Shown in pieces: positions 4,588 through 60,406 of a stretch of 64,000 bases of DNA (positions are counted from its first letter, which is position 1; each line of letters starts with the position of its first letter). The translations under genes and the position numbers were made by a program. The notes beneath the pieces are model-generated. The model was given only the letters and a program-made list of their open reading frames with translations, made no database searches and had not been told where the DNA came from. Where the stretch lies: positions 26,911 to 90,910 of the forward strand of contig JABIBU010000016.1 of the NCBI GenBank assembly GCA_018652595.1, given 5' to 3'. The DNA is from Candidatus Magasanikiibacteriota bacterium. Lineage in GTDB: Bacteria > Patescibacteriota > Patescibacteriia > Magasanikbacterales > UBA922.

Positions 4588-4604
4588 AATATTTTATAAA
4601 TGAC

Positions 4605-4640
4605 AATGCCGAGGATCCTCCAGGTCCTCGGCTTTTTTGT
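4605..4640 (+). terminator. rho-independent terminator
   Basis: gccgagga-tcctccagg-tcctcggc followed by TTTTTTG. Confidence 0.7.
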
Positions 4641-5035
4641 CCCTCCGTACCATAGAGGTCTTGCAGCGAAATAGCTACTACCTCACGGCCTGTCTCAACC
4701 CGTCGGTGGTTTTCCTCCTCAGGGTTTCCGCCTCTCCAGAAGCCTCTTGTCGTGCCCGCTCACGAGCCCGCTCCAGGGCTTCCAGCATAGGCTCGCCGGT
4801 GAAAGGAGATGTAACACTCTCGTGTTCGAACCCCTCTCCGTACCCATTGGCTCCGTGCCCTCTCTTGTAGCTCCAAAATGACCGCATCCCACACCTCTTC
4901 TCAGAGAAAAAGTTAAGGATGCATCTTCCCTCGTCTCACGACGAAGAGCTGATTACCACCTTGCCAGAAAACCTCCGGTAGGTTGGCGGGTTGAGACCAG
5001 CTACTCCATATCCCTTCTAGATGCAAACACTTGCC
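4641..5035. ncRNA. candidate structured ncRNA, class undetermined (about 58% GC island in 35% GC genome)
   Basis: 400-nt GC-rich island with no credible ORF (overlapping antisense ORFs of low-complexity R/A/S/P composition). 11-bp long-range complementarity 4692-4702 :: 4987-4997, extendable by a second helix 4705-4715 :: 4966-4976. Loose RNase-P-like strings (CAUAGG, GGUGAAAGG, CCAGAAAACCUCCGG) but no canonical P4. Confidence 0.4.
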
Positions 5036-5141
5036 ACACAGCAAGACAAAATAAACTTAAAAATTTACTTTGTCCTACTGTGAACAAAAATATAGTAACA
5101 AAAAAAGACTAAAAAGTCAATACCACCGCTGTGAATTATAA

Positions 5142-17084: not shown

Positions 17085-17722
17085 AAATTCACCTTATCTA
17101 TTTTTGACTTTAGATATTTATTAAGTCTTTTTTCAGTTTCAGGCATCAGCTTGTCGGCAATTTGCCTAGCTGTTTTTGTTCTCAAAAAATAATAACAACT
17201 AAAGACATTGCGCAAATGCTGATCCCAAGCATTATCATTATCTTTAAACAACTTCCAAACCCTTTCTAACCCAACATCACCAAATAAATCTAATTTATCA
17301 GCATCACGTAAAATCCAAGCGGTATCATACTTATCAGCGGCATCATTCCAATGATAGCGGACTGCGTAAAGCAATTCTTTCTTTTCTTCTTTGGAAAGAA
17401 TATCAAAGCTACTATCATCCTCAAACCACTTATTTAATAATTCATAAGATAATTCGTGATGTTTCCTACTAGTTTCTCCAGGATTATCCTCCAAAGTCCT
17501 ACCAATATCATGAAACCAAGCTGATAACTCACAAAGAAAGGGTTTATTAGCCCCCTCTTGACTGATAATTTTATTAACTGCACTTGCGACCCTCTCAATG
17601 TGGTCTATACCATGTGCGGGATCAGAATAGTCTTCAAATATTTTTTTTACTTTGGAAATAGCATGATTCAAAAGATCCTGCTCTTCATTTGTATATTTTA
17701 TTTTTTCTTTTTTATTTTTCAT
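17081..17722 (-). CDS. HD-domain phosphohydrolase
   Basis: H…HD metal-binding motif (HGIDHIERV … WFHDIGR). 4-nt overlap with mnmA suggests an operon. Confidence 0.7.
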   Translation of the reverse strand: MKNKKEKIKYTNEEQDLLNHAISKVKKIFEDYSDPAHGIDHIERVASAVNKIISQEGANKPFLCELSAWFHDIGRTLEDNPGETSRKHHELSYELLNKWFEDDSSFDILSKEEKKELLYAVRYHWNDAADKYDTAWILRDADKLDLFGDVGLERVWKLFKDNDNAWDQHLRNVFSCYYFLRTKTARQIADKLMPETEKRLNKYLKSKIDKVNL

Positions 17723-17769
17723 AATAAATCTAGTTTAACCCAAAACAAAATAAAAATCAACAAAAAAAC

Positions 17770-17830
17770 CACCTCATCCTCCCATTTCAAAATTAAATGA
17801 TTAATTCTGAAATGGACGGAGGTGATTTTT
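17770..17830 (-). terminator. terminator of the zinc-ribbon gene (minus strand)
   Basis: cacctc-atcctcc-catttc … gaaatgg-acg-gaggtg hairpin, followed on the minus strand by a T-run. Contains an acctcatcct 10-mer shared with the double-hairpin repeats. Confidence 0.5.
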
Positions 17831-17896
17831 TCTTGAACCCCTCGTCCGCCCGCCTTTTTGTATGTTGGCGGGGAAAAAGAGAGTGAGGCAGCCCCA

Positions 17897-18157
17897 CTAA
17901 TCACTTGTGGGCATTCCGTGGACCGTATCGGTGAGCACGACCTCATTTCCATCATCCGAAGCTGCAGGGAGTTCCGCCATGGTCTGAGCCTTGTCCCCAT
18001 CAGGACCCAGATCATCACCAGGAATCTCGACGGAGTTAACCCCCGACATGTCATGCATGACAGGAACATGAAGCTTTGTCCCGCAATTCCCGCAGAAGTT
18101 GTGAGAATAAGGATTCTCCTGACCACACTTGCTACACTTTTTCATTCTACCTTCCAT
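17897..18157 (-). CDS. zinc-ribbon domain protein
   Basis: CSKCGQEN…CGNCGTKL CxxC-x13-CxxC. Good RBS (AGGAGG, 7 nt). Acidic C-terminus. Sits in a GC-rich islet. Confidence 0.55.
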   Translation of the reverse strand: MEGRMKKCSKCGQENPYSHNFCGNCGTKLHVPVMHDMSGVNSVEIPGDDLGPDGDKAQTMAELPAASDDGNEVVLTDTVHGMPTSD

Positions 18158-18229
18158 CTCTTACCCTCCTAGTTCATGTTTATATTTATCTTATATTTTT
18201 TCTCCCAAACTGTCAATTATTTATAAAAA

Positions 18230-39348: not shown

Positions 39349-39433
39349 AACACTTGACTTCTTTTATTTTTAATGGTAAAAATTAGTAAACAGCTCTTTG
39401 AACATTAACCTTTTTATAGAAGGAAAACATACG

Positions 39434-40168
39434 ATGGAAGAAACTAAGACCAATGACCCTCTCTCGTTTTTGATCAACACCTTCAACCTGATATATGGAG
39501 GACTCAGGTGGTTCTTTGCACCCGCAGTACCCTACCTATTCCCTCGTCGCAAGCTACCTCTCTGGATGACTCGCGGACGACATGTAGAGGTAATTACCGC
39601 AAACCAGATTACAGTGTTCAGAACCGCCATGGTAATCCCGATCTCTATGCTGGTCTACCATCACCACTACAAAACTGCATTTATTACCTTCGTTATTGCC
39701 GCTGTACTAGACTTTGTCGATGGCCTGGTCGCCACCGTACACCGACGACTTGGCTTCCAAGACAGCTCAGACCTGGGAAAATTCTTAGATGCATTCTGCG
39801 ACAAAATCTTCTACATCCTGACACTAAGCCTCGTTCTACTCTCTAGTAGATACGAAACAATGGGTCAATGGGCAATCGCCGCGCTGGTCATTGTCTCACT
39901 TCTAAGCATGGGCTGCGAAGTCTGGTTAGCGGTAGTCAGAGTCGAGGACTACTACTACAACAAGCTCAACGGCGCAAGCGGTGCCAGAGAGCTGAAAGCG
40001 AAAGGAGCTGGCAAGCTCAAGTTCGCACTCGAGATGGTTGGTGTCGGCGGCCTTTACCTATCGCTCCCCTCCTCCAATCATTGGAGCTTCTATGTGGGGT
40101 TTGCGTGCCTCATCTGCTCCTTCCCCTTCGCTGTGGCCAGCCTGAAGCAGAAACTTCAGCAACGCTAG
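39434..40168 (+). CDS. CDP-alcohol phosphatidyltransferase family protein (GC-rich, likely acquired)
   Basis: D-x2-DG-x2-AR…G-x3-D-x3-D motif (DFVDGLVATVHRRLGFQDSSDLGKFLDAFCD). About 50% GC versus about 35% background. RBS AGGAAA before M13. Confidence 0.7.
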   Translation: MEETKTNDPLSFLINTFNLIYGGLRWFFAPAVPYLFPRRKLPLWMTRGRHVEVITANQITVFRTAMVIPISMLVYHHHYKTAFITFVIAAVLDFVDGLVATVHRRLGFQDSSDLGKFLDAFCDKIFYILTLSLVLLSSRYETMGQWAIAALVIVSLLSMGCEVWLAVVRVEDYYYNKLNGASGARELKAKGAGKLKFALEMVGVGGLYLSLPSSNHWSFYVGFACLICSFPFAVASLKQKLQQR

Positions 40169-40294
40169 CCCACCCACCCTATAACCCCGCCTCGTTCACA
40201 GCCATCCTGGCTGAGTCTATCGAAGCGCGGGTTTTCCTTTTTCTAAGGATATTATTGCATTTTCTTAATATAAATTCAAGTTTGTTTATAAGTT

Positions 40295-40434
40295 CCCCTC
40301 TCCTTTATAAGGAGAGGGGCTAGGGGTGAGGTCTCACAGAAGCAACGTAATATCTTCACTGTAAAACCCTACTCCCACGCTCATTTTAACCTCATCCTGT
40401 CCTTCTCCTTGTTAAGGAGAAGGAACGTTCTAAG
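40295..40434. repeat. double-hairpin repeat element, copy A (module 1 40295-40333; module 2 40384-40434)
   Basis: Module 1: cccctctcc-tttataa-ggagagggg + ctaggggtgaggt. Module 2: ttttaacctcatcctgtccttctcc-ttgttaa-ggagaagg-aacgttctaag. Nearly identical copy at 52706-52814; half copy at 49118-49154. Confidence 0.7.
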
Positions 40435-47042: not shown

Positions 47043-47357
47043 TTATTTTACTTCCTTTATCTTGATCTTGGTCTTGTGTTGACGGTGTCCTATAACACGT
47101 TTATAACGCACTTTTCTTTTGAATTTTACTACGCGAATCTTTTTATCGCGAGTTTGTTCTTCGACAGTAGCAGCAATACTAACGCCGTCTAAATATGGAG
47201 TGCCGATTTTGACATCTGTACCATCTTCTTTAGCCAAAAGAAGAACTTTATCAAAAACAACGTCTTTTCCAGCTTCAACGTCAAGCTTTTCTACTTTCAA
47301 AGTATCTCCGGTTTTGATCAAATATTGCTTTCCACCGGTTTCAATGACTGCAAACAT
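47043..47357 (-). CDS. rplU: 50S ribosomal protein L21
   Basis: MFAVIETGGKQY…KFKRKVRYKR L21 signature. Confidence 0.95.
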   Translation of the reverse strand: MFAVIETGGKQYLIKTGDTLKVEKLDVEAGKDVVFDKVLLLAKEDGTDVKIGTPYLDGVSIAATVEEQTRDKKIRVVKFKRKVRYKRVIGHRQHKTKIKIKEVK

Positions 47358-47427
47358 AATTTTATATTTTATATTTTAGTTATTAGAGCTTGACCCAAAG
47401 GGAAGTCGAATCAATCTAAGTGGCAAT

Positions 47428-47456
47428 ATTATATAATAAATAACTTTTTTTGTCAA
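47428..47456 (-). promoter_or_regulatory. sigma70-type promoter for rplU
   Basis: Minus strand TTGACA-17 nt-TATAAT (perfect consensus), about 70-nt leader before the rplU ATG. Confidence 0.6.
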
Positions 47457-49117: not shown

Positions 49118-49154
49118 CCCCTCTCCTTTATAAGGAGAGGGACAGGGTGAGGTA
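49118..49154. repeat. double-hairpin repeat element, copy B (module 1 only)
   Basis: tcccctctcc-tttataa-ggagaggga-cagggtgaggt, in the divergent region between the MraY/WecA-like gene and the GC-rich secreted-protein gene. Confidence 0.65.
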
Positions 49155-49253
49155 TCGCAGTAACTTGACAAAGTGAGGAAAATGTTGTTAAATAAAGATA
49201 AAGTTTTGAGAAAACCGACCCGGCTTTGGGTCACAATCGCATGGAGGTTTATC

Positions 49254-49736
49254 ATGCGCGTTTCACCGCTTGGTGGAGAAAACACTCGGTTCATCTTTCA
49301 GATGACCTTCTGTCCCCCTCTTGTGCTTGTGCTTATCATGGTTCTTGGCTCAATCTCCTCTTGCCATGAAGCCCAAGCTGCCAACCCCGCCATCGACAAG
49401 TGCTGGAACGAAATGATGGAGGAGAAACGGATCAAGCGCGTGCTGGAGGACGCGCCCGTGGTTCAGCAGACCGCCATCGACTTCGTCCAAGCCTTCGATG
49501 ACCTGTCTGACCAGAAGACGGAACTCGAAGGGCAGATCGAACTTCTCCATATCCAGATCAGCCAGCTTGAGGAGGATAAGCTGCTAGCTGAGCTGGATGA
49601 GCTAATGGCGGATTCGCACATCGACAGCGAAATCTGCAACAACGATCAAGACGATGACGGTGACGGCTGGATCGACTGCCACGACTGGAACTGCGACAGG
49701 GACCCCGCCTGCAGTACTACCGGAATCAGCTTCTAG
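49254..49736 (+). CDS. secreted acidic coiled-coil protein (GC-rich, hypothetical)
   Basis: GGAGG RBS 7 nt before ATG. Hydrophobic signal-like segment LVLVLIMVLGSISSC, coiled coil, Asp/Cys-rich C-terminus (DQDDDGDGWIDCHDWNCDRDPAC). About 55% GC. Confidence 0.5.
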   Translation: MRVSPLGGENTRFIFQMTFCPPLVLVLIMVLGSISSCHEAQAANPAIDKCWNEMMEEKRIKRVLEDAPVVQQTAIDFVQAFDDLSDQKTELEGQIELLHIQISQLEEDKLLAELDELMADSHIDSEICNNDQDDDGDGWIDCHDWNCDRDPACSTTGISF

Positions 49737-49854
49737 TATCCACCTGCCCACTCTCAAAACCCACCAAGGAGACTCTCGGAGCGTTTCAGCTCCATCAAAT
49801 CCCCAGGACCGCGAACAACTCGCCCCTGGGGTTGTTCAATTATAAAACAAATAC

Positions 49855-49907
49855 TTGTCCCCTCCTTGTTGGGGGGGGACAAAAAAATAGCCTTTAGGCT
49901 ATTTTTT
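49855..49907. terminator. tandem hairpins, bidirectional terminator (secreted protein / clp convergent)
   Basis: gtcccctcc-ttgtt-ggggggggac-aaaaaaa, then tagcc-ttta-ggcta-tttttt. Confidence 0.65.
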
Positions 49908-52705: not shown

Positions 52706-52814
52706 CCCCTCTCCTTTACAAGGAGAGGGGTTAGGGGTGAGGTCAATCACTTTAGGTTTCTAGTTTTAACCTCATCCTGTCCTTCTCCTTGTTAAGGAGA
52801 AGGGACGTTCTAAG
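52706..52814. repeat. double-hairpin repeat element, copy C (module 1 52706-52744; module 2 52764-52814)
   Basis: cccctctcc-tttacaa-ggagagggg-ttaggggtgaggtc … ttttaacctcatcctgtccttctcc-ttgttaa-ggagaagg-gacgttctaag, located between the clp ATPase start and the upstream gene. Confidence 0.7.
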
Positions 52815-57133: not shown

Positions 57134-57565
57134 TTAAATTCCCAACTCAAACATATCTTCTGCAATATTCTCACTTTCTTTTTCACTCTTTGTCTTATAT
57201 GCTTCCCAATTTTTCTGATCCCAAAGCTCGAGACGGTTGTATAGCCCTGCCACGACAACTTGTTTCTTGAGACCAGCAAAACTGCGAAGATACTCTGGCA
57301 ACATTACTCTACCTTGCTTGTCCACACCCACATCCATGGCACCAGCCAGCATCAGACGTGCAAAAGCACGGGCTTTGGCTTGTGAAAATGGCAAAGTAGC
57401 CAATTTGTCAGCCAATTTTTTCCACTCAATCTTGGTATACAGGAACAGACAATTGTCCAAACCACGAGTGACTACTGCCCCCTTACTCAAATCAGCCCTA
57501 AATTTCTTTGGTACTGCAAGTCGCCCCTTCTCGTCTAAATTGTGGCTATATTCACCTATGAACAC
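57134..57565 (-). CDS. mraZ: transcriptional regulator MraZ
   Basis: Duplicated MraZ domain (DEKGRLAVP… and DKQGRVMLP…). Confidence 0.9.
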   Translation of the reverse strand: MFIGEYSHNLDEKGRLAVPKKFRADLSKGAVVTRGLDNCLFLYTKIEWKKLADKLATLPFSQAKARAFARLMLAGAMDVGVDKQGRVMLPEYLRSFAGLKKQVVVAGLYNRLELWDQKNWEAYKTKSEKESENIAEDMFELGI

Positions 57566-57631
57566 AAGATTGTAATTATTGATAAATAGACAAGCACCTT
57601 ATTTATCAACTTAATGCGCAAGGTTAGTAGT

Positions 57632-57648
57632 TCCCCACTTTTCCCCAC
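57632..57648 (-). promoter_or_regulatory. GTGGG-type direct repeats (MraZ-box-like, 2 x GTGGGGA, 10-bp period) upstream of mraZ
   Basis: Plus strand tccccacttttccccac = minus GTGGGGAAAAGTGGGGA, about 70 nt upstream of the mraZ ATG. Additional GGGTGTG-type repeats at about 57705-57717 and 57737-57747. MraZ is known to bind GTGGG-type direct repeats upstream of its own operon. Confidence 0.45.
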
Positions 57649-57746
57649 GTACTTCCATTATATACCACTTTAAAACACTTAGCAACCCTTTTTAGGGTTG
57701 TTTATCCACACCCTAAAGACAATAATTTAATTATTCACACCCACTC

Positions 57747-57775
57747 TTGACAAAACCTTTGTTTTGTGCTATAAT
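57747..57775 (+). promoter_or_regulatory. perfect-consensus sigma70 promoter driving the candidate ncRNA
   Basis: TTGACA (57747-57752), 17-nt spacer, TATAAT (57770-57775). Confidence 0.65.
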
Positions 57776-57782
57776 GCTTTGT

Positions 57783-58186
57783 TAAGTTAAATAAGTCAAG
57801 ATCCTGTGTGTATATAATAATTTGTCTATACACAGGGCCTTGGGTGGCCAGACGACGTGCACCCAGTACGGGCAGGCAGTAAAAAATGGTTCACAATCGC
57901 GAAAATGCGAGGAAAAACCAGATCAATCATGATCCTGGAGAACCATCTAATCTGCAGCCACGCAGGGCAGTTCACCAGAACCGTCGACCAGCAATCTGGC
58001 CACCCAAGCCCCACTCAATTCCGCCCTTTTTAGGAGCAAGTAGCAGGCGTGCACCTCCCAAGCCATCTCGGCAATCCATGGGAACCCTTTCGCACAACAA
58101 AAGCCTGCTACTTGCTCCATGAAACTCTTTGACTATTTAAGTAATTAAAGAGTAATAAAAAACCAGCGATAACGCTGGTTTTTTAA
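57783..58186 (+). ncRNA. candidate structured ncRNA with consensus promoter and terminator, class undetermined
   Basis: Perfect TTGACA-17-TATAAT at 57747-57775; intrinsic terminator at 58162-58184. 12-bp 5' hairpin (57803-57837). Long-range helices 57835-57852 :: 57995-58012 (17 bp, one mismatch) and 58033-58048 :: 58103-58118 (16 bp perfect). The only ORFs are Pro/Arg-rich low-complexity. Confidence 0.55.
58155..58186. terminator. bidirectional terminator (ncRNA candidate / beta-CASP RNase)
   Basis: aaaaa-accagcg-ataa-cgctggt-tttttaatt. Confidence 0.7.
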
Positions 58187-58206
58187 TTATCAATTTTACC
58201 TAAAAA

Positions 58207-59562
58207 CTAAATCTCAAACTCCTCACCAAACTCAGGTATAAAAGCCTCCACTTTATACTTATCCCTCAAACGATGTGCAAATTCTGTAGCTGCATGTGAT
58301 TCGCCGTGTATGCAAAAAATCTTTTTAGGTGTGTTTCCACTAGATCCTGCCCAGTCAATTAATTTTTTCTGATCACCATGAGCAGACAGAGCGCCGATGG
58401 CTTTTATTGTACATCTCACATCCACATCGGCACCCATAATTTTTACTTTTTCTTTTCCTTCATAAAGCTTTCTACCCAAAGTCCCACTGGCCTGATAACC
58501 GACAATTATAAGTGTGGAATTTGGATCTGGGAGATAGCGGAAAGCATGATGAATAATTCTACCACCATTCATCATACCGGCTCCGGCAATTATCATTTTG
58601 GAACCACGAATATGATTAATTTGTTTGGACTCTTCACGTGTATGGGTCATTTTTAATCCAGGAAAATCCAGGAAATCATCCCCAACCATATGCAGACGCA
58701 TGGCTTCTTCATCATAGTATTCTGGATATTTTCCATATACTGCAGTAGCATCAATTGCCAGCGGACTATCCAAGAAAATTGGAATCTTTGGAAGTTCCTT
58801 ATCATGCTCACTAAGCTTATTTAGCTCATACAAAAATTCTTGTGTACGCTCCAAAGAAAAAGCTGGTATCATAATGGCCCCACCTTTTTTTACACCCTCT
58901 TTTATTAATTTTAGAATAACTTCACGCCTCACCTCAATTGGTTCGTGAATCCTGTCGCCATAAGTTGATTCACAAAGCAATACATCTATATCATTACTTA
59001 ATTTTTGTGTATCTTTCAATATTGGGACATTTTCATTTCCAATATCTCCTGAAAACGCAATCTTCTTACCGTCTACTGACAATTCTATAAAGGCTGCGCC
59101 AAAAATATGTCCAGCATCTTTCCAAATGGCTTTTACGCCGGGCAAGACTTCTGTCTTTTCATTATAGTTTATTCCAGTGCAATAAGATTTTGCTACCGCA
59201 ATATCTGCCTCACCAAACAATACTGGCGTGCCATAACGCTTCAAATTTTCTTTCATAATATGCCAACCATCCACCCAAATAAGCTCAGCAAATTCGCAAG
59301 TTGCTTTGGTCATCCAAATCTTTCCCTTGAAGCCATCCTTTATTAATTTTGGTATTCTACCAACATGATCTAGATGTCCGTGAGTAACCAGAAGAACGTC
59401 AATCTCTGCTGGATTGAAAGGAAAATCTTCGTGATTTTTGCCCTCATTAAACTTACCCCCTTGGAACATCCCACAATCTACTAGGATCTTGTACTTGTCT
59501 GTCTCTAGAAGATGACAAGAACCCGTCACCCCACCAGCCGCTCCACAAAATTTTAATTTCAT
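58207..59562 (-). CDS. beta-CASP family MBL-fold ribonuclease (COG1236, RNase J/CPSF-like)
   Basis: THGHLDH metallo-beta-lactamase motif, beta-CASP motifs, C-terminal His. Confidence 0.75.
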   Translation of the reverse strand: MKLKFCGAAGGVTGSCHLLETDKYKILVDCGMFQGGKFNEGKNHEDFPFNPAEIDVLLVTHGHLDHVGRIPKLIKDGFKGKIWMTKATCEFAELIWVDGWHIMKENLKRYGTPVLFGEADIAVAKSYCTGINYNEKTEVLPGVKAIWKDAGHIFGAAFIELSVDGKKIAFSGDIGNENVPILKDTQKLSNDIDVLLCESTYGDRIHEPIEVRREVILKLIKEGVKKGGAIMIPAFSLERTQEFLYELNKLSEHDKELPKIPIFLDSPLAIDATAVYGKYPEYYDEEAMRLHMVGDDFLDFPGLKMTHTREESKQINHIRGSKMIIAGAGMMNGGRIIHHAFRYLPDPNSTLIIVGYQASGTLGRKLYEGKEKVKIMGADVDVRCTIKAIGALSAHGDQKKLIDWAGSSGNTPKKIFCIHGESHAATEFAHRLRDKYKVEAFIPEFGEEFEI

Positions 59563-59649
59563 AAAAATTAATTAATACTAAAGTAAATAGAGTATACCAC
59601 AAAACAGAGCCTACACAAAAACCAAAAACTATGGTATTATATCTACAGT

Positions 59650-59731
59650 GCTTTTTCTAAAAAGCCTTTTTAGCTCTACCTGTCGGTAGACAGGCTTTTC
59701 CAGCTTTTCAAGCCTTTTAGGCATTTATATT
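59650..59731 (+). repeat. AT-rich intergenic motif family copy 3
   Basis: Hairpin cctgtc-ggta-gacagg followed by ggcttttccagcttttcaagccttttaggcatttatattATG (start of the 59732 gene). Confidence 0.55.
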
Positions 59732-60406
59732 ATGCGTCGAAATATCGAACAAATAGAGATCAAGGAGCCACCTATTCAAGAACTGGGCAAAAAAAGATCT
59801 TGTCTAAAAAGAACTTGTTTTACTGGCTGTGGCTGCATAGTTATCTTTATTATTGCTTCTATTTTGTTATTAAAATTTGCTACTGGACCCAGAACAAAAA
59901 AATTGAATGAAGTTCCAGATAATTTTCCTGAATCAGTCCCGCTTTATGATTCAGACAATATTGAAGAAATAACCTTTACTTCCGGAAAAGAAAAAGGTCG
60001 TGCACTAGAGATTGTCGCCTTTGTTCCAAAATTAATCCTATCTCCTATTATTTTAGGGCTTGACAAGGAGGATAACTCTGGAACTGGTATCAGCATGAAT
60101 ATTAAAAAGACAGGCACTTGGAAAAACTTTGTAAACATAATGAAAGAACCTGTAGTCGATCACCGCGATACAATCCAAATAGAATGGACTGAGATGCCTG
60201 CCGAACCTTGGTTTGTGCAGAGCTACTATGAAACAGAATTAAAAAGTTTTGAGCACATCACAGAAAGAGATAATGAAAAAGATAATACCATTCGTAGGTT
60301 GAATTTTGAATTAGATGAAATAGAAGGTATACTATATATAGAAGACAATCCCACACAAGGTGGAACTGATTATGTATTGTTAACCGTAAAAACCCCTATA
60401 AAATAA
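59732..60406 (+). CDS. membrane-anchored hypothetical protein
   Basis: ORF with N-terminal TM. Start immediately follows an intergenic repeat motif. Confidence 0.4.
   Translation: MRRNIEQIEIKEPPIQELGKKRSCLKRTCFTGCGCIVIFIIASILLLKFATGPRTKKLNEVPDNFPESVPLYDSDNIEEITFTSGKEKGRALEIVAFVPKLILSPIILGLDKEDNSGTGISMNIKKTGTWKNFVNIMKEPVVDHRDTIQIEWTEMPAEPWFVQSYYETELKSFEHITERDNEKDNTIRRLNFELDEIEGILYIEDNPTQGGTDYVLLTVKTPIK

Follow-up and report, generated by a model that had tools for sequence, protein, structure and literature searches.

A candidate strain-specific gene for a highly structured, probably non-coding RNA in a hypervariable slot upstream of mraZ in a Magasanikbacteria genome

We analysed a 64-kb stretch of DNA from a Candidatus Magasanikiibacteriota bacterium (hereafter the window, 64,000 nucleotides in length), and in particular a GC-rich element at its positions 57747-58190, which is divergent from the gene mraZ. 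The explanation that we favour, and that we hold to be about evenly balanced between right and wrong, is that the element is a strain-specific accessory gene, organised as a moron-like transcription unit, whose product is a highly structured RNA of ~375-410 nt that is probably non-coding. It is most likely a new orphan among known kinds, namely stand-alone structured small RNAs (sRNAs) and accessory transcription units; one sequence is too little for the claim of a "new RNA class". The original prediction for this segment had seen in it a stand-alone structured RNA, perhaps a divergent housekeeping RNA or a novel class of non-coding RNA (ncRNA). The transcription unit and its structure are borne out by our results, while of the two class assignments the first fails and the second cannot be claimed.

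The unit is delimited by signals of its own on both sides, as had been predicted. A promoter scan returned a 12/12 match to the sigma-70 consensus, facing away from mraZ, and a pattern search of the 64 kb found only two promoters of this quality (n=2), the element's own and that of rplU, which encodes ribosomal protein L21 (47428, - strand). Since the only other perfect promoter in the window drives rplU, the promoter of the element can be called ribosomal-protein grade. Transcription would start near 57782. The strong intrinsic terminator expected at the end of the segment was found at 58156-58185, with a 13-bp stem, a 4-nt loop and T-runs flanking both sides. It is bidirectional, and the convergent beta-CASP gene on the - strand (58207-59562) ends at the same terminator. 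The two signals are:

57747-57775, + strand: sigma-70 promoter TTGACA-17-TATAAT with a TG extended -10, 12/12 match
58152-58190, no strand assigned: bidirectional terminator common to the element and the convergent beta-CASP ribonuclease gene

The RNA that would be transcribed from the + strand (57782-58190) has a predicted minimum free energy of -157 kcal/mol, compared to -96 +/- 5.9 in dinucleotide shuffles (z = -10.3). Without the terminator z is -8.5, whereas controls consisting of housekeeping coding sequences (CDS) and clearly coding GC-rich cassettes gave +0.7 to -4.2. The longest perfect stem has 16 bp, whereas those of 300 shuffles averaged 7.6 and never exceeded 13. The exceptional structure seen at the outset is thereby confirmed. 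The accompanying figure of 58% GC holds as a peak in 150-nt windows but not for the core of the element (57835-58124), which has 54%, compared to 36% for the window overall. The partition function gives the helices high pair probabilities and a well-defined order of a closing stem (P1), a 5' hairpin (P2), domain 1 (closed by P3), a single-stranded linker, domain 2 (P4) and the terminator. The parts are as follows:

57787-57800, + strand: 5' arm of the closing stem P1, pairing with 58128-58140 (13 bp plus a bulge, pair probability 0.73-0.87)
57805-57834, + strand: 5' hairpin P2 (8 + 4 bp)
57835-58012, + strand: domain 1, with helix P3 (arms 57835-57852 and 57995-58012, 17/18 bp, 94% complementary)
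57854-57878, + strand: patch A, GACGUGCACCCAGUACGGGCAGGCA, partly paired inside the RNA's own fold
58008-58030, + strand: linker B, GCCCCACUCAAUUCCGCCCUUUU, C-rich, the sole long single-stranded stretch
58028-58124, + strand: domain 2, with helix P4 (~25 bp), which encloses a small hairpin domain

P3 encloses a multi-branch with five short hairpins, and P4 contains a perfect core (58033-58048 with 58103-58118, 16/16 bp, 100% complementary). The unpaired part of linker B is 58012-58027 (16 nt, P(unpaired) ~0.99). The 12-bp 5' hairpin, the 17-bp long-range helix and the 16-bp perfect helix described earlier are thus all present at their proposed places, as P2, P3 and the core of P4. By analogy with the cassette mRNAs of related loci, P2 is likely a stabiliser of the 5' end, and the length of P4 would suit an RNase III substrate.

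Could the structure serve an mRNA instead? The only sizeable open reading frame (ORF) of the element is:

57886-58122, + strand: 78-aa Pro/Arg-rich ORF, probably spurious

If this basic ORF were translated, the element would be a small protein gene, and its structure would provide mRNA stability or translational control. Many related loci do hold GC-rich cassettes in the same slot, with a promoter, a 5' hairpin, a Shine-Dalgarno (SD) sequence, an ATG and a small orphan ORF. An ATG ORF of such length arises on the + strand in just 4% of shuffles (in 15% if any ORF of at least 78 aa on either strand is counted), and a GGCAGG stretch upstream would form a duplex of -6.5 kcal/mol with the anti-SD, the median for ORFs of the genome being -5.0. 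However, no canonical GGAGG was found 5-9 nt before the start, unlike in the coding cassettes, and the start codon together with the SD-like stretch is locked in high-probability helices according to the partition function. GC by codon position is 0.60/0.53/0.46, so that the third position (GC3) lies below both the first and the second (GC1 and GC2), whereas real cassette ORFs have GC3 > GC2. A C/A-rich strand would yield the Pro/Arg/His/Gln bias in any frame. The ORF was left uncalled in both assemblies that span the slot. A word-indexed search of 5.8 billion cluster representatives returned no homologue, an exhaustive HMMER search of 1.84 billion representatives returned only two matches, both to unrelated repeat proteins, and the ORFs tested had no match in Pfam or PHROGs. 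The clearly coding cassettes also fold far less stably (z of +0.7 to -4.2, compared to -8.5). Apart from the weak SD-like duplex, the marks of a small-protein cassette, namely SD and start, coding GC periodicity and homologues, are lacking in the 78-aa ORF, and we consider a small protein gene rather improbable. This agrees with the earlier view that the only ORFs here are low-complexity, rich in Pro/Arg, and look like artefacts of GC bias: homologues are lacking, the length is within chance and the bias follows from composition. The element is probably non-coding, and it shows the arrangement by which a base-pairing sRNA is recognised, an independent promoter and terminator without a translated ORF, with non-coding status taken as probable.

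We searched the 4227 covariance models of Rfam 15 with cmscan, over the whole window at the gathering score and over 57550-58300, both strands, at E<=10. No match reached the gathering score anywhere in the 64-kb window, and 57550-58300 gave only noise from the terminator and flanks (<=27.5 bits, with gathering scores of 40-175). Likewise, ARAGORN found 0 tRNA or transfer-messenger RNA (tmRNA) genes in the window. A divergent housekeeping RNA, such as RNase P RNA, tmRNA or 6S, had been an attractive idea: the element resembles these stable RNAs in its length, in being a GC-rich island in an AT-rich genome, in its strong promoter and in the closing stem that joins its 5' and 3' ends. Unlike RNase P RNA and tmRNA, however, it has no covariance-model match, no tag feature, and no P4/CR-I or T-arm/CCA signature in its sequence, the signatures not having been found in the first reading either. 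It is also unconserved among close strains, being absent at the locus where flanking proteins are 91-97% identical and from ~100 related loci. RNase P RNA (models RNaseP_bact_a and bact_b) is ruled out, as there was no match at E<=10 and the relatives of 97% and 91% identity have an empty slot, and tmRNA is ruled out by ARAGORN and by the lack of an Rfam match at E<=10. No covariance-model match was obtained for 6S or for the large ncRNAs (OLE, GOLLD, ROOL, HEARO, raiA and others). Since neither Rfam nor ARAGORN gave a match, the proposal of RNase P RNA, tmRNA or 6S is unsupported, and a divergent housekeeping RNA is effectively refuted. The cmscan check that had been suggested for these families therefore assigned none. 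The alternative proposal of a novel ncRNA class cannot be claimed, since only identical copies from one population were found, hence no family and no covariation.

A further reading is a type I toxin-antitoxin or other conflict system, in which the element would be a toxin mRNA subject to fold-back inhibition. A strain-variable element in a variable islet, coding for a ~400-nt highly structured RNA whose 5' and 3' ends pair as in hok-type mRNAs, would be in keeping with this. Yet no short hydrophobic ORF exists in any + strand frame, and no plausible antisense promoter was seen inside the element. The weak Rfam matches to OrzO-P and AgrB stem from the terminator hairpin only; the former has 26.8 bits, versus a gathering score of 60, and covers the terminator only. 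We regard a conflict-system RNA as highly unlikely. A tRNA bearing a group I intron, known in Patescibacteria (PMC13011429), is ruled out, with no tRNA halves and no match to an intron model.

The element sits between the conserved mraZ control region and a gene for a beta-CASP/RMMBL ribonuclease-like protein (Pfam domains). The closest records are metagenome-assembled genomes (MAGs) of Magasanikbacteria, within the candidate phyla radiation (CPR), as the original prediction had guessed, and GCA_018657365.1 agrees exactly with the window wherever the two were compared. In three independent contigs, whose MraZ is identical, the element is present at 100% identity, as a whole or over the 209 nt covered; these assemblies come from different sources. 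Samples that hold this population are those behind GCA_018657365.1, ERZ27237583 and SRR3724645. We compared 80 MraZ-anchored species-level relatives (71-90% identity), 21 beta-CASP-anchored metagenome loci and 6 loci from protein look-ups. No homologue of the element was found in the 80 MraZ-anchored loci by nhmmer or blastn, nor in the 21 and 6 others, which makes ~100 related loci in all. Blastn against phages and plasmids gave no match, and five pattern scans of viral contigs gave only chance 16- to 20-mers. The 20-mer GACGTGCACCCAGTACGGGC (57854-57873) equals the antisense of the codons for RPYWVHVK in portal-like genes of 10 GC-rich viral contigs (L118-L127 in our numbering of loci); because the similarity stops at the ends of the 20-mer, we judge it to be a chance match, amplified by a conserved motif.

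What the slot holds in the strains anchored on the beta-CASP gene differs from one to the next:

L084, beta-CASP neighbour 97% identical: empty, terminator only
L086, beta-CASP neighbour 91% identical: empty, terminator plus a (ACAATATA)n repeat
L085, beta-CASP neighbour 94% identical: ~470 nt of unrelated AT-rich filler
L112 and L103, beta-CASP neighbours 96% and 91% identical: insert of 1.2 kb carrying a GC-rich 175-aa orphan ORF that has promoter, 5' hairpin, AAGGAG and ATG
L113, beta-CASP neighbour 82% identical: DUF559 and transposase fragments

The homology that the window shares with these strains stops at TTATCCACA on the mraZ side of the slot and at the stop codon of the beta-CASP gene on the far side, and the terminators differ too. 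The breaks at both edges, together with the differing terminators, indicate that the element is one allele of a hypervariable slot; by these comparisons it is accessory and not housekeeping. The slot as a whole (57566-58206) is fully turned over with respect to L084, L085, L086, L103, L112, L113, L114 and L001-L080. Contents seen elsewhere include ornate RNAs, a tRNA (L041), two tandem RNA units (L019) and the transposase fragments of L113. Just downstream of the beta-CASP gene, L085, L086, L087, L103 and L112 have octamer tandem repeats, (ACAATATA)n or (ACAATGTA)n, of up to ~15 copies and of a length that differs between strains.

Such turnover is also what one would expect if the element were functionless or near-neutral filler, that is, recently acquired or rearranged DNA rich in inverted repeats that has come to lie behind a strong promoter in a recombination or insertion hotspot, and whose transcript, if any, would serve no selected function. 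The contents of the slot are wholly exchanged between strains whose neighbouring proteins are 91-97% identical, and elsewhere it is occupied by unrelated filler (L085), by microsatellites (L086, L087) or by transposase fragments (L113); the element is an orphan without a homologue in any collection searched, and its perfect Watson-Crick long helices are equally a feature at the DNA level. In addition, a 9-nt direct repeat, TTTAATTAT, encloses promoter, element and terminator (57726-57734 and 58182-58190, 456 nt apart). A target-site duplication is conceivable, although the repeat is AT-only and statistically unconvincing. On the other hand, the perfect extended promoter, 5' hairpin, closing stem, two domains and terminator look, when taken together, organised and not accidental. 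The fold (z = -8.5) is well beyond that of coding cassettes and controls, and the element is 100% identical in independent assemblies of different sources. Neither terminal inverted repeats nor a transposase accompany it: a test for a miniature inverted-repeat transposable element or insertion sequence found no terminal inverted repeats beside the unit and no second copy of the element in the 64 kb or in any compared locus. Filler without function strikes us as doubtful, though as a serious contender.

An accessory RNA gene has partial parallels in known systems. Phage "morons" are promoter-gene-terminator units of atypical composition that are inserted between conserved genes. The element resembles these, and strain-specific sRNA islets, in being self-contained from promoter to terminator, in its composition (54% versus 36% GC) and in its position between conserved genes; like morons, it is present or absent between near-identical strains. 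Unlike morons, it lacks a prophage context and matched nothing in the phage, plasmid and viral collections, and its cargo is apparently RNA and not protein. The ncRNA candidates that the Breaker laboratory found in GC-rich intergenic regions have multiple representatives with covariation (PMC6429828, PMC8632094, PMC11109978). The element is like them in having been found as a long GC-rich intergenic region of an AT-rich genome with strong predicted structure, but unlike them it is a single sequence, and one that matches none of the 4227 Rfam 15 models.

If the element encodes such an RNA, what could be its function? Our best functional lead is a mechanism of antisense pairing with mraZ, which we offer as tentative and as distinctly less probable than the existence of the RNA gene. 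Under this model the RNA would be abundant and stable and would act by base pairing, most likely on the mRNA of mraZ, which is transcribed divergently. Imperfect duplexes of 18 bp (linker B) and 20 bp (patch A) would form inside the mraZ coding region, and the outcome would be duplex-dependent cleavage, or lowered expression of mraZ and of the dcw operon. RNase III would find a suitable substrate in P4 (~25 bp) as well as in the predicted intermolecular duplexes. The predicted target sites are:

57476-57500, - strand: site B' in the mraZ coding region (codons ~22-31), 18-bp predicted duplex with linker B
57351-57380, - strand: site A' in the mraZ coding region (codons ~62-72), predicted duplex with patch A

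This lead comes from a scan of linker B against all 40-nt windows of the 64 kb on both strands (12,792 windows). The best non-self partner was the mraZ mRNA, with -29.7 kcal/mol, followed by a next best of -26.8 over a background of -6.6 +/- 4.2, and 1/1000 shuffled linkers equalled linker B against mraZ. For patch A, too, the mraZ mRNA was the best partner of the segment in the window (8+9+3 bp, -36.0 kcal/mol). With every 25-nt window of the element considered and the best duplex kept, mraZ came 2nd of 156 mRNA-sense segments, the others averaging -26.5 +/- 3.0, and 0/48 dinucleotide shuffles of the element reached the observed pairing energies. The corresponding p values are ~0.004 and ~0.013, from two tests that are not fully independent. 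The predicted energies are suggestive, though no proof, of complementarity to the mraZ mRNA beyond chance. Two further calculations were set aside. The own mraZ allele paired best of 87 alleles, which we discarded as evidence because the patches had been chosen on that allele (winner's curse), and a full-length duplex prediction was uninformative, giving unrealistic whole-length duplexes.

Complementarity to mraZ could have another origin, if the element were a decayed tandem copy of mraZ that is transcribed antisense, giving a pseudogene-derived antisense RNA. Patches A and B and a third short block are colinear and lie on the same strand as mraZ antisense, and a permissive local alignment places the element in the top 1.4% of genome segments. 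A stricter alignment, however, gives merely the top 8%. The MraZ protein hidden Markov model gave negative bit scores in all six frames, nhmmer with an mraZ DNA profile of 87 sequences found nothing at E<=100, and the GC contents differ (54% in the element, 44% in mraZ). We hold this origin to be very improbable, and a decayed duplicate is ruled out by the protein model and the DNA profile.

In its arrangement the putative pair resembles the type I antisense sRNAs of IstR-1/tisB, OhsC/shoB and OrzO/zorO, which are divergently encoded and partially complementary to their targets. Like these, the element is divergent from its putative target, upstream of it and non-overlapping, with a strong promoter and an intrinsic terminator of its own, and its complementarity is confined to imperfect patches of ~18-20 nt. 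Unlike in these systems, the putative target is not a small toxin but mraZ, which encodes a transcription factor of the dcw operon; the RNA is 4-5 times longer and far more structured, its sites lie deep in the CDS, and the pairing is predicted only. A different parallel is UpsM of Rhodobacter sphaeroides, an sRNA that is part of an extended 5' leader preceding the dcw cluster, according to the title of the report on it (PMC5089854). Both RNAs are linked to the region just upstream of the mraZ/dcw cluster, but the element has its own promoter, lies on the opposite strand and has no detected sequence family in common with UpsM.

Several findings weigh against a structured RNA gene acting on mraZ, and they concern the RNA as well as its target. 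The minus strand folds nearly as well (z = -8.3); the long helices are all pure Watson-Crick, which accounts for near-equal folding on the minus strand or as DNA, and the strand assignment thus depends on the promoter alone. As all copies are identical, neither covariation nor selection on the structure can show in them, and since close relatives lack the element, any function must be dispensable. The GGCAGG stretch upstream of the 78-aa ORF, which pairs with the anti-SD better than is typical for this genome, tells against a non-coding RNA. With respect to the target, the pairing statistics are modest and partly post hoc, and one non-mRNA segment scores equally. The sites are deep in the mraZ coding region and not at the ribosome-binding site, the partition function has patch A partly buried in the RNA's own fold, and the structured RNAs that occupy the same slot in five other genomes showed no excess complementarity to their own mraZ.

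The accessory RNA gene that we favour can also be viewed together with the contents of the slot in other genomes. Many of the 80 MraZ-anchored loci have a GC-rich island of 300-500 nt at the same position with a strong divergent promoter, often TTGACAAAAC, and the islands of different loci share no sequence relation. One kind is clearly coding, with an SD at ~7 nt, an ATG, GC3 > GC2 and z between +0.7 and -4.2. The other kind looks non-coding and has extreme structure, with z of -8.0 in L044, -10.4 in L041 (after the tRNA), -7.4 in L011 and -14.2 in L043. By its predicted fold (z -8.5) the element of the window groups with this second kind. No Rfam match was found among the structured islands of other loci, and the cassette ORFs tested against Pfam and PHROGs were all orphans. 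One may speculate that Magasanikbacteria have an expression hotspot just upstream of the mraZ/dcw control region, in which unrelated GC-rich cassettes with promoters, for orphan small proteins as well as for ornate orphan RNAs, are swapped between strains, and that the element has been tuned to pair with the mraZ mRNA of its own strain as a brake at the RNA level on this master regulator of cell division; we consider this combined scenario unlikely.

The genomes of CPR/Patescibacteria are minimal, and their regulation is almost unknown. If the element is expressed and functional, it would be among the very few regulatory RNAs proposed for this group, and, if the pairing is true, a strain-specific RNA would be tied to mraZ, which acts as gatekeeper of the operon for division and the cell wall. 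The pattern of the hypervariable slot may outweigh the single RNA: near-identical strains differ in GC-rich orphan cassettes with ribosomal-grade promoters, and this pattern, with similar islands elsewhere in the genome, is relevant to the question of how accessory functions are gained and expressed in ultra-small symbionts. As a single orphan sequence, the element has its present value as a candidate for metatranscriptomic checking.

Four more GC-rich islands with promoters are present in the window itself. In organisation these units are moron-like too, but no match to phages, plasmids or viral contigs was found. The one at 4590-5120 (-), which has no Rfam match, is a stand-alone unit with a TTGACT-17-TACTAT promoter (5120-5092) and a 5' hairpin of 24 bp; its fold has z = -6.6, and its 69-aa orphan ORF (4678-4887) comes with a GAGG Shine-Dalgarno. 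The islands at 17719-18215 (-), 39354-40260 (+) and 49165-49900 (+) have 50-60% GC, each with a TTGAC-type promoter and a terminator, and their respective products are a zinc-ribbon-like small protein, a CDP-alcohol phosphatidyltransferase and a 160-aa orphan, which has a hydrophobic N-terminal stretch and is possibly secreted. A palindrome resembling repetitive extragenic palindromic sequences, CCTCTCCTTTAyAAGGAGAGG, followed ~6 nt later by GGGTGAGGT, occurs three times (40297-40332, 49120-49153 and 52708-52743), where none is expected by chance. All three copies are in one orientation and intergenic, beside GC-rich cassettes and clpB, and similar palindromes are found in the mraZ slot of L040 and L080. 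The rplU promoter region (47357-47456, -) also has TTGACAAAA... and a leader of ~65 nt, at which no Rfam match to the L21-leader was reported.

Next to the element, the mraZ control region comprises the mraZ promoter (57685-57657) and CCCCAC repeats with a 10-nt period, and ends as follows:

57702-57739, + strand: edge of the mraZ control region, with TTATCCACA (57702-57710) and the near copy TTATTCACA (57731-57739)

The first box, TTATCCACA, at which homology with close relatives stops, is kept in nearly all relatives, and TTATTCACA lies directly upstream of the -35 box of the element. TTATCCACA is a perfect DnaA-box sequence, and across the Magasanikbacteria it has been conserved, in one orientation or the other, at the distal edge of the mraZ control region. 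The second, near DnaA box is 29 nt off, right before the -35 box, and forms a direct repeat (TTATyCACACCC) with the first. DnaA boxes are not enriched across the window, which lends no support to an oriC near the element. At ~59560-59740 the genes change from the - to the + strand and the fall of the cumulative GC skew comes to an end, a divergence point that resembles a replication origin, with no dnaA gene or DnaA-box cluster seen in the window. Finally, four CCCCAC / TTCCAT / TACCAC repeats with a 10-nt period (57633-57668) overlap the mraZ -10 box (57657-57662), and repeats of this type are what one would expect of the MraZ operator.

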